DNA of 2,910 nt from the IMG/VR virus record IMGVR_UViG_2534681831_000032. One strand, 5' to 3'. The DNA is from a virus (Duplodnaviria; Heunggongvirae; Uroviricota; Caudoviricetes). Shown piece after piece: positions 1 to 1,802 of the stretch; positions within the stretch are counted from its first letter, which is position 1; each line of letters begins with the position of its first letter. The notes beneath the pieces were generated by a model, which searched no databases, was not told the origin of the DNA, and saw only the letters and a list, made by a program, of their open reading frames with translations. A program made the translations under genes and the position numbers.

Positions 1-2
1 AC

Positions 3-515
3 AAATACATTACTGAATACCTGACTACAAAGGGCGTGTTTGAGAATGAAGAAACAGACCTGGGCACTGTTGATGTTCTCCAGTCATCAGAAACACAAAC
101 TGATGCAGTGGAAACTGAGGTATCTGATATCCCAAAAAATGAAACCGCGCCGGAAGCTGAACCATCTGTAGAGCGTGAGGGGCCGTTCTATTTCCTCTTC
201 GCAGATAAGGACGGAGAAAAATACGGTCGCGCAAACAAACTTTCTGGTCTGGATAAGGCACTGGCTGCTGGCGCCACTGAAATCACAAAAGAAGAATATT
301 TTGCCCGAAAAAATGGCACATACACGGGCTTACCGCAAAATGTAGATACCGCTGAAGATTCAGAACAACCAGAGCCGATAAAAGTTACCGCTGACGAAGT
401 AACAAAATTATGCAGGCAGCCAATATCAGCCAGCCTGACGCCGATAAGTTGCTTGCTGCCTCTCGCGGAGAATTTGTTGCAGGGATTAGCGACCCGAATG
501 ATCCGAAATGGGTAA
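3..515 (+). CDS. Hypothetical acidic protein, 5'-partial (reading frame open to the left window edge; annotated GTG at 36 is probably internal)
   Basis: Frame 0 is open from position 3 to the TAA at 513-515 (about 171 codons, no stop). The ORF-track start (GTG at 36) is preceded by in-frame sense codons back to the window edge, so the gene most likely begins upstream. The product is strongly acidic (E/D/T/S-rich, e.g. [29 protein letters not shown]). The last ~35 codons (about 411-512) are rich in codons that are rare in enterobacteria (AGG, ATA, TTA, TTG, CGA) and overlap the next ORF, so the true 3' end is uncertain. Confidence 0.5.
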
Positions 516-1489
516 AGGGGATTGAAACCCGCGATTCTGTAAACCAGAACCAGCAAGAATCGGAACAGAACGACCAGAAAGCGGAACAAAACAGCCCAAA
601 TACGCAACAAAACGAGCCAGAAACGAAACAACCTGAGCCAGTAGCGCAACAGGAACCGGAAAAAGTCTGCACCGCCTGCGGTCAGACCGGCGGCGGCAAC
701 TGCCCTGATTGTGGCGCGGTGATGGGCGACGCAACATACCAGGAAACATTCGATGAAGAGTATCAGGTTGAAGTTCAGGAAGATGATCCGGAGGAAATGG
801 AAGGCGCTGAACATCCACACAAGGAGAACACTGACGGCAATCAGCATCACGATAGCGATAATGAAACTGGCGAGACGGCAGATCACTCAATTAAGGTGAA
901 CGGTCATCAAGAAATCACATCCACCAGCAGGACGTGTGACCATCTAATGATCGACCTTGAAACCATGGGAAAAAATCCTGATGCCCCGATCATCTCAATA
1001 GGTGCAATATTTTTCGATCCGCAAACCGGAGATATGGGACCGGAATTTAGTAAGACTATCGATCTGGAAACTGCTGGCGGGGTCATTGATCGGGACACCA
1101 TTAAATGGTGGCTTAAGCAATCACGCGAAGCGCAATCTGCCATTATGACCGATGAAATCCCGTTAGATGATGCACTGTTACAATTGCGGGAATTTATCGA
1201 CGAAAACTCCGGTGAATTTTTTGTTCAGGTCTGGGGAAATGGAGCCAACTTCGACAACACGATTTTGCGCCGTTCATACGAACGGCAGGGGATCCCCTGC
1301 CCGTGGCGTTACTACAACGATCGCGATGTACGCACAATCGTTGAGCTGGGGAAAGCCATAGACTTCGATGCCAGAACGGCTATTCCATTCGAAGGTGAGC
1401 GCCATAATGCACTTGATGACGCCCGTTACCAGGCAAAATACGTTTCAGTTATCTGGCAAAAACTGATCCCGAATCAGGCTGATTTTTAA
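410..1489 (+). CDS. DEDDh-family 3'-5' exonuclease (DnaQ/RNase T-like) with an N-terminal acidic low-complexity region and a CxxC-x7-CxxC zinc-knuckle motif
   Basis: Frame 2 is open for 359 codons from ATG 410 to TAA 1487-1489. The C-terminal domain carries the three exonuclease motifs: Exo I (MIDLETMG, D182 at 953-955 and E184 at 959-961), Exo II (WGNGANFD, D282 at 1253-1255) and Exo III ([14 protein letters not shown]332 at 1403-1405 and D337 at 1418-1420, an H-x4-D pattern that resembles the DnaQ epsilon-subunit motif as recalled). The N-terminal ~180 aa are acidic and Q/N/E/P-rich and contain C87/C90/C98/C101 (668-712, [16 protein letters not shown]). The start is uncertain: alternative in-frame starts are GTG 718, ATG 721 and ATG 947, and no start has a convincing Shine-Dalgarno sequence. 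Confidence 0.8.
540..665 (+). repeat. T-poor, A/C/G-rich imperfect short-repeat tract (CAGAAC/GAACAG-like units) encoding a Q/N/E/P-rich low-complexity linker
   Basis: Read directly: cagaaccagcaagaatcggaacagaacgaccagaaagcggaacaaaacagcccaaatacgcaacaaaacgagccagaaacgaaacaacctgagcca. It translates in frame 2 to [40 protein letters not shown]. It is a compositionally biased coding tract, not a tandem repeat of exact copies. Confidence 0.6.
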
Positions 1490-1553
1490 TGTTCAACCCC
1501 GGTCGTTGCCCACCAGCTATAGTGGCGGCGACCATGATTAGCGAACGACGCTC

Positions 1554-1802
1554 ATGGCAAGACTTATTCTGCTCACTGAGTGGGCAAAAGAGGAATTCAG
1601 TGAACCGGTCCCAACTCCGAGTACGTTAAGTAAATACGCTAAAGCCGGAATGATATTTCCTCTCCCCAAAAAAGTTGGAAGACGCTGGCGAGTGGATCCG
1701 CAAGCTCGCTTTGTCGGAATGGTAAACAAGCCGGAGGTGATCGCCACAGATCACCCTGCTTTGAAGAGGATACTGGAAGATGGCGCGCCCGCGAAAATAT
1801 AA
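1554..1802 (+). CDS. xis: Excisionase (lambda Xis-like recombination directionality factor)
   Basis: An 82-aa ORF (ATG 1554, TAA 1800-1802) lies immediately upstream of the integrase and overlaps it by 23 bp, as lambda xis overlaps int by about 20 bp. Its sequence resembles lambda Xis as recalled: N-terminal LILLTEWAK against lambda LTLQEWNAR, and IFPLPKKVGRRWRV against lambda IFPPPVKDGREYLF. Size and basic character fit a small DNA-binding protein. Confidence 0.8.
   Translation: MARLILLTEWAKEEFSEPVPTPSTLSKYAKAGMIFPLPKKVGRRWRVDPQARFVGMVNKPEVIATDHPALKRILEDGAPAKI

Follow-up and report, generated by a model that had tools for sequence, protein, structure and literature searches.

The acidic coding segment at positions 3-400 of the window, the whole 2,910-nt stretch of DNA analysed here, is best explained as residues 329-461 of a single 823-aa protein, encoded in the early left operon of a PPompW/Qin/Rac-like lambdoid prophage. 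This reading, taken together with a linker-minidomain-linker anatomy, a frameshift and the mechanism proposed below, is given a probability of about 85%. The first-pass annotation had described a partial acidic protein that ended at an overlap with the next gene and might be a DNA mimic. The observation is real but the framing is wrong, as the segment is the middle of a well-known prophage gene; the gene is ordinary and has already been annotated as an exonuclease. The segment resembles a separate partial protein because the window starts in mid-gene and carries a unique 1-nt deletion. Its odd look is the product of a window boundary and a one-base frameshift, the latter probably being either a private mutation or an assembly error.

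An annotated prophage exonuclease gene

All features described here lie on the + strand. Translation of frame 3 from window position 3 to 401 gives 133 aa, in which both motifs quoted in the first-pass annotation are present. With 30 acidic residues (D+E) and 13 basic residues (K+R), the segment has a net charge of -17 and a pI of 4.21, and the pI and charge calculation that had been suggested bears out the description of a strongly acidic, partial coding segment of 133 codons. The acidic fraction of 23% is about twice the 11.5% typical of E. coli proteins (binomial p = 2e-4). The remainder of the same protein is itself 18% acidic, with a pI of 4.64, and the excess of the segment over this remainder is not significant (p = 0.11). 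Frame 3 is truly coding, given that 22 of the 30 substitutions in window 151-335, the minidomain region, fall at the third codon position of this frame in comparison with the divergent allele L005 (4/4/22 over the three positions). As had been remarked by eye, the segment holds no catalytic motif, and searches of the 133 aa against Pfam, NCBIfam and PADLOC returned no match.

By megablast, the window is 98.6% identical over its full 2,910 nt to E. coli chromosomes. It is matched at least in part in 4,741 of 5,426 complete E. coli genomes (~88%), and at least 80% of it is covered in 1,716 of them, such that about a third carry a near-full-length copy. Further matches are found in PPompW-type and Tritos-like phages. 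In these relatives a single coding sequence, WP_000034482.1 ("exonuclease", 823 aa), spans window positions -981 to 1489, flanked on one side by dicB/DUF1482 (ydfD) and on the other by xis-int-ompW. The segment aligns to positions 329-461 of the 823 positions of PHROG 2082 with E = 9.5e-72, and the N-terminus does lie beyond the window, as had been supposed, with 328 further residues upstream in relatives. WP_000034482.1, PHROG 2082, Tritos TRITO_27 and the ECO26_1771-like gene all represent the same gene as that of the window; the DNA identity of the window is 98.6% to the L001 copy, 96.8% to the ECO26_1771-like copy and 97.4% to Tritos (window 1-1497). The window copy has the same position between dicB/ydfD and xis-int as the E. 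coli prophage "exonuclease" gene and is colinear with it on to the DEDDh domain, but lacks one A at about 400-402, is therefore read in two frames, and has its first 328 codons outside the window.

Homology search and structure prediction, which the first-pass annotation had recommended, were carried out via these relatives. A family was found in PHROG 2082, but no free-standing protein was. What was recovered instead is a full-length ORF with clear homology to a nuclease family, by way of PHROG 2082, a RecE-like middle region and a PF16473 DEDDh domain, and this overturns the original framing on its own terms. Relatives carry the gene as one uninterrupted ORF of about 811-831 codons, whereas the window copy is split by the 1-nt deletion; the split is a defect of the window copy or of its assembly, and not a family difference.

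The precomputed Pfam annotations of full-length relatives list PF27430 (YdfE_N), PF27432 (YdfE_C) and PF16473; the local Pfam copy detects only the C-terminal PF16473, and the newer precomputed annotations add YdfE_N and YdfE_C. Every full-length relative has YdfE_N and YdfE_C at its N-terminus, a region that here would lie upstream of the window. YdfE of E. coli K-12 (b1577), a pseudogene of the Qin prophage that follows dicB-ydfD, corresponds to residues 1-256 of the 823-aa protein with 95% identity and is truncated by IS2 before the segment is reached. The Pfam YdfE families do not cover the segment, and the 136-aa fragment of L005 that holds it, minidomain included, has no precomputed Pfam match. 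A literature search on the function of ydfE and on Rv2179c-like domains in phages found nothing functional.

Downstream of the segment, the same gene continues in frame 2 with a RecE-like middle region at 410..940, made up of a conserved block, a Q/N/E-rich low-complexity stretch and a third acidic stretch, with a CxxC...CxxC zinc ribbon at 668-712. The last part of the gene, 941..1489, encodes the DEDDh 3'-5' exonuclease domain (PF16473, Rv2179c-like) and includes the stop codon. In the 359-aa frame-2 product, residues 178-349 (window 941-1456) match PF16473 with E = 5e-68, the DLET, NFD and HNALDD motifs are present, and PADLOC gives a generic DEDDh match. In a PDB sequence search with the full-length protein, the DEDDh domain alone finds matches (8kel, 8ken). 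An excisionase (1554-1802) and a tyrosine integrase (1780-2910) follow, both of an ompW-integrated (PPompW-type) lambdoid prophage, and L001, Tritos and ten other loci share the order gene-xis-int. Scanning the window for Rfam families and for promoters or terminators gave nothing above chance.

The one-base deletion

The reading frame changes from frame 3 to frame 2 at 399..403, where the window reads GTA-AC and relatives read GTA-AAC. One A is missing, such that the window has GTAACAAAAT where every relative examined has GTAAACAAAAT, and pairwise alignment to L001 shows a single gap, at window 400. As a result of the missing A, the frame-3 ORF runs on to 515 and overlaps an ATG at 410 (410-515, 106 nt), which in relatives is an internal Met codon of the ORF. 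The out-of-frame tail at 402..515 (TKLCRQ...RNG, 37 residues, stop codon at 513-515) is not native protein, and a database fragment that ends with the same frame-3 tail (P0069) is itself frameshifted. The separate protein ending at an overlap with the next gene, as first described, accordingly dissolves into the single ORF that relatives maintain through to window 1489. More generally, overlaps of two ORFs in prophage early regions can be frameshift artefacts.

The deletion was found nowhere else. A 70-nt query across it finds 6,927 places in 3,830 of the 5,426 complete E. coli genomes, and none of these places matches the 70-mer exactly; the best matches are 70/71, with the extra A. A 34-mer across the deletion is absent from IMG/VR, the JGI metagenomes and the GTDB species representatives, whereas the intact 35-mer, used as a positive control, is present in at least 120 viral contigs. 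Nor is the deletion present in any of the 20 loci that were fetched.

That the deletion is an assembly or sequencing artefact, with an intact 823-aa gene in the source organism, has about an even chance of being correct. The deletion is seen in none of 6,927 gene copies and in none of three large collections, and it sits at a junction. The window has a mosaic makeup, being almost identical to L001 and L002 over positions 1-400 and 99.92% identical over positions 408-2910 to contig DAZKGB010000022.1 (GCA_043650015.1), which begins exactly at window 408. A contig end and an allele switch thus fall at the place of the deletion. In E. coli genomes with the gene, the number of matching places has a median of 2 and reaches 9, a copy number that typically breaks short-read assemblies. 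Frameshifts are also present in many of the fragments of the gene found in databases. Against an artefact, AA in place of AAA is a short run and not a classic site of long-homopolymer error. The gene is also truly disrupted in some strains, by IS2 in K-12 ydfE and by an IS in L017, and PPompW prophages are often defective (PMC8112680).

These last points equally favor a real deletion, which is given somewhat less than even odds. In that case the gene would be a pseudogene with an N-terminal product of about 499 aa that ends in the 37-aa nonsense tail, and possibly a separate 359-aa exonuclease fragment started from the ATG at 410. In other strains different events have inactivated the gene, prophages integrated at ompW are often degraded (PMC8112680), and gene callers have called the 359-aa product on two contigs. 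One of these contigs starts at window 408, and the other is a noisy metagenome contig with a different allele. On the other side, there is no second occurrence of the allele in complete E. coli genomes, the fetched loci, IMG/VR, the JGI metagenomes or the GTDB representatives, no obvious Shine-Dalgarno sequence is seen by eye upstream of the ATG at 410, and a genuine mutation would have to coincide with the contig end and allele switch. Given the copy number of the gene, its frameshifted fragments, the mosaic window and the uniqueness of the deletion, an artefact is rated about as likely as a private pseudogene. If the deletion is real, translation would stop 37 out-of-frame residues past the segment, and the exonuclease head would be cut off from the rest of the protein; the other possibility is that the deletion is simply an error. 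Programmed -1 ribosomal frameshifting, giving a short product alongside the full-length one, was rejected as very improbable. The change from frame 3 to frame 2 is formally -1 and the 106-nt overlap (410-515) is available, but no slippery heptamer (X XXY YYZ) is seen among the zero-frame codons at the deletion site, GTA ACA AAA TTA TGC; the window has no Rfam match, every other copy examined is one uninterrupted ORF and the deletion is in no other genome.

Acidic linkers around a conserved minidomain

Within the 823-aa protein, the segment is predicted to consist of the end of a helix, a disordered acidic linker, a small conserved domain and a second disordered acidic linker. The AF2 model that underlies this division is of a full-length family member and was built from a 26-sequence alignment. 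The alignments used had little depth (26 and 21 sequences), and pTM for the whole protein is 0.24. Residues 1-340 are predicted to be folded, with pLDDT mostly 74-92 except for a brief drop at 97-101 and a stretch of low values at 207-242. The first codons of the segment (3..32, residues 329-338) encode the end of the last helix of this folded, N-terminal YdfE-like region, modeled as a helix over residues 324-338 with pLDDT of about 89.

Acidic linker 1 (33..155, residues 339-379) is rich in E, D, T and S, carries the ENEETDLG...VSD motif and is predicted to be disordered. The model has no predicted structure over residues 344-384, with pLDDT of about 25, and the net charge over residues 329-385 is -12. 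Acidic linker 2 (330..398, residues 438-460) is likewise predicted to be disordered, from a pLDDT of about 25, below 50 and with no predicted structure, over residues 438-458; the net charge over residues 436-465 is -5. Low pLDDT is not always a sign of disorder in these models, given that the exonuclease domain also scores low for want of alignment depth. The entropy over residues 341-380 is 0.53-0.71 among 120 cluster representatives, the highest in the protein, and substitutions in linker 1 relative to L005 (window 3-150) are spread over the codon positions without bias (16/14/11). The charge persists where the sequence does not: the 60 residues upstream of the minidomain motif have a net charge of -6 to -17 in 16 of 17 relatives, with unconserved sequence.

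Between the linkers lies a minidomain of about 55 aa (156..329, residues 380-437) with a predicted beta-beta-alpha-beta-alpha fold. The "short hydrophobic core" of the first-pass annotation, its second quoted motif, proves to be real and begins the most conserved element of the whole protein family. The signature of the minidomain is (V/L)E..P.V.ER.GPFY, a hairpin, and (G)RANK..gL..aL..G..EI(S/T).EE(Y/H).ARK.G. Entropy over residues 381-440 is 0.04-0.13 among the 120 cluster representatives, so that this part is almost invariant. In a 26-sequence alignment of relatives, 13 of the 14 invariant columns fall within the minidomain (R386, G388, P389, F390, Y391, R404, A405, N406, K407, G418, E421, I422 and K431), the 14th being M1. 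AF2 gives pLDDT of 83-91 over residues 385-437 and places strands at 390-396 and 399-405, a helix at 408-416, a strand at 419-422 and a helix at 424-431. Window 147-344 modeled alone is predicted to adopt the same fold, with core pLDDT of 86-91.

The minidomain is without a match to a Pfam family or a solved fold, which is a modest new observation. Weak matches to SHOCT (PF09851) were found in 8 of 16 minidomain sequences, the best with E = 0.0097, and the window's own copy has none. A PDB search with the minidomain profile gave nothing below E = 0.068, and a BFVD search with the minidomain gave nothing below E = 0.31. A WGR domain, considered on account of the (F/Y)Y...GR pattern, was rejected, as there is no Pfam WGR match and the predicted order of secondary structure differs from that of the WGR fold.

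The acidic flanks raise the question of DNA mimicry. High negative charge density is common to the segment, the C-tails of T7 gp2.5 and SSB, Ocr and ArdA, and disordered acidic tails that compete with DNA exist, in the C-tails of T7 gp2.5 and SSB. The segment could be, or act as, a DNA mimic, either as a free-standing anti-restriction or anti-RecBCD protein or as an acidic tail that occupies DNA-binding sites of its own nuclease head or of host proteins. In favor are the net charge of -17 over 133 aa, the flanks that stay acidic in 16 of 17 relatives despite divergence, and the position of the gene where lambda carries gam, with a weak Gam-like neighbor in one relative. However, the segment is not free-standing but internal to one 823-aa ORF in all relatives, and PADLOC, Pfam and PDB searches gave no match for it. 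Its acidic parts are predicted to be disordered (pLDDT of about 25) and thus to present no rigid array of charge, they are the least conserved part of the protein, and the first linker shows no codon-position bias; the conserved part, the minidomain, is net neutral. A folded scaffold with a conserved acidic array was not found, as the sole part of the segment predicted to fold is this net-neutral module. A folded DNA mimic is therefore not supported by the models, mimicry in any of these forms is unlikely, and the same low probability is assigned to a loose electrostatic, DNA-like role for the disordered acidic tethers. Compared with Ocr, ArdA and the T7 gp2.5 and SSB tails, the segment has no sequence or fold match, and its acidic stretches are internal, variable linkers that are predicted to be disordered, with no predicted folded acidic surface.

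Under the preferred reading, that of an internal part of the 823-aa protein, the acidic stretches would be intrinsically disordered tethers, apparently selected for composition and charge and not for sequence. The minidomain, with invariant R386, R404, K407 and K431 on a net-neutral module, would probably dock onto a partner protein or the end of a nucleic acid. The minidomain and the YdfE-like N-terminal region may make up a shared targeting platform, on which one DNA-processing head has been exchanged for another. It is a tentative proposal that the minidomain is an undescribed domain that docks head-swapped phage recombination enzymes onto DNA ends or a host factor and determines where they act.

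Exchangeable heads and comparison with RecE

Searches for homologous proteins, run once with the segment and once with the minidomain profile, yielded nothing beyond short E. coli fragments, of which many were frameshifted, and gave no architectures; the segment is 99-100% identical to fragments annotated as E. coli "exonuclease". When 1.84 billion representatives were searched exhaustively with the segment (phmmer), there were only 40 matches, two of which (P0230 and P0226) were discarded on reading the sequences as spurious repeat or low-complexity matches. Named members of the family come from Escherichia, Klebsiella aerogenes and Enterobacter. The long relatives have in common the YdfE-like N-terminal region, the acidic flanks and a single minidomain, and vary in their C-terminal heads. 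The head is a PF16473 DEDDh exonuclease in P0092 and P0213 and a RecE-type PD-(D/E)XK nuclease (PF12684) in P0224, P0225, P0227 and P0238. In P0215, P0216, P0229 and P0239 it has a weak, below-threshold match to Rad52_Rad22 (E = 0.0037), and in P0220 it has no family match.

The order in relatives is YdfE_N/YdfE_C (about 340 aa), linker, minidomain, linker, RecE-like middle, linker and DEDDh head. The analysis establishes this architecture, the pattern of conservation and the swapping of heads. In the loci examined, the gene follows kilR/dicB (and gam, by a weak match, in one) and precedes xis-int; the RecE-type locus has no xis-int called downstream. The early left operon is where lambdoid phages keep their recombination genes. 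If the minidomain is the tentatively proposed docking domain, it would be the one near-invariant element of large Enterobacteriaceae phage recombination proteins with exchanged heads, be they DEDDh, RecE-type or a possible Rad52-like annealase. Small, strongly conserved and unnamed, it offers a target for studying the role of the non-catalytic two-thirds of RecE-like proteins.

A known protein of similar design, and the only relative studied by experiment, is RecE, the exodeoxyribonuclease VIII of the Rac prophage in K-12, which, like the 823-aa protein, is a large, modular nuclease of an early left operon with acidic low-complexity linkers. BLASTP against K-12 RecE gives 40% identity over 364 columns (E = 5e-62), nearly all of the identity being downstream of residue 465. 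The similarity is high between residues ~465-625 and RecE 453-591, where the block that contains DPNDPKW and the CxxC...CxxC zinc ribbon are shared; in the window this region lies at 410-900, downstream of the segment. The 133 aa of the segment, in contrast, do not resemble RecE to a significant degree, the best BLASTP match covering 24 residues with E = 0.022. NCBIfam NF007259, the RecE equivalog, matches residues 246-625 with 285.6 bits, against a cut-off of 1269. The catalytic heads differ as well: here Pfam finds PF16473 and RNase_T, not the PD-(D/E)XK family PF12684, so that a DEDDh 3'-5' exonuclease stands where RecE has a PD-(D/E)XK 5'-3' nuclease. Unlike in the RecE system, recT is not adjacent to the 823-aa gene.

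The N-terminal part of RecE has been described as being of unknown function, dispensable for nuclease activity and able to enhance linear-linear recombination (PMC11611040). K-12 RecE lacks the GPFY...RANK minidomain, which the RecE-type relatives P0224, P0225, P0227 and P0238 possess, and the recombination effect of the RecE N-terminal part (PMC11611040) therefore cannot be ascribed to it. In short, the comparison joins K-12 ydfE, the N-terminal half of RecE and the DEDDh "exonuclease" of Qin/PPompW-type prophages in one modular family.

Frameshift, contig boundary and allele switch

The single-nucleotide deletion that shifts the frame of the 823-residue exonuclease gene lies at a point where the window also changes in its resemblance to other alleles. 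Before position 400 the sequence is like L001, the closest complete E. coli genome locus, and after it like L004, an independent contig near-identical to the window (DAZKGB010000022.1 of GCA_043650015.1). The first base of that contig (L004 position 1) corresponds to window position 408, at most 8 nt from the frameshift, such that all three features fall within 399-408. This pattern is what would be expected if two copies of a repeated prophage gene had been wrongly joined.

The differences from L001 are unevenly distributed, with about 20 of the 40 concentrated in the 200 nt from 460 to 660 of the window, where L004 is identical to it. This points to allelic mosaicism, and hence recombination, within the RecE-like middle region.

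Features around the exonuclease gene

An antisense ORF of 232 codons with a GTG start (window 188-886, minus strand) faces the acidic and Q/N/E-rich portion of the exonuclease gene, and probably arises only as a side effect of biased codon usage on the sense strand. Downstream, the 64 nt that separate the exonuclease stop codon from the xis start codon contain a GC-rich hairpin (GGUCGUUGCC…GGCGGCGACC, window 1501-1533), for which a 71-nt fold gives -22.3 kcal/mol (z = -2.4 versus shuffles). The hairpin is not followed by a T-run, and it has neither a terminator call nor an Rfam match. The last 23 nt of xis are shared with the start of int (window 1780-1802), and the exact 376-residue integrase is extremely frequent, with 41,177 indexed blocks in the assembly collection.

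Relatives and remnants of the exonuclease gene

Four protein relatives (P0215, P0216, P0229 and P0239) combine the YdfE-like platform, the acidic linkers and the minidomain with a C-terminal domain whose signature (KKSLTDALKKALSLLGF) is Rad52-like and which matches Pfam Rad52_Rad22 below threshold (E = 0.0037). Although labeled "exodeoxyribonuclease VIII", these proteins would be possible annealases. One example, at L006 5650-7986, is preceded by a weak Gam-like gene and followed by a Sipho_Gp157 gene.

The exonuclease gene is inactivated repeatedly among E. coli prophages. In strain CP040316.1 (L017 1-3710), an inserted IS (transposase) splits it near residue 490, which places the break a few dozen codons beyond the frameshift seen in the window, on its downstream side. 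In the Qin prophage of E. coli K-12, IS2E truncates the gene to leave the ydfE pseudogene (L010 4079-4999), which corresponds to codons 1-256 at 95% identity. Therefore, the Pfam families YdfE_N and YdfE_C, both new, take their name from a truncated remnant.
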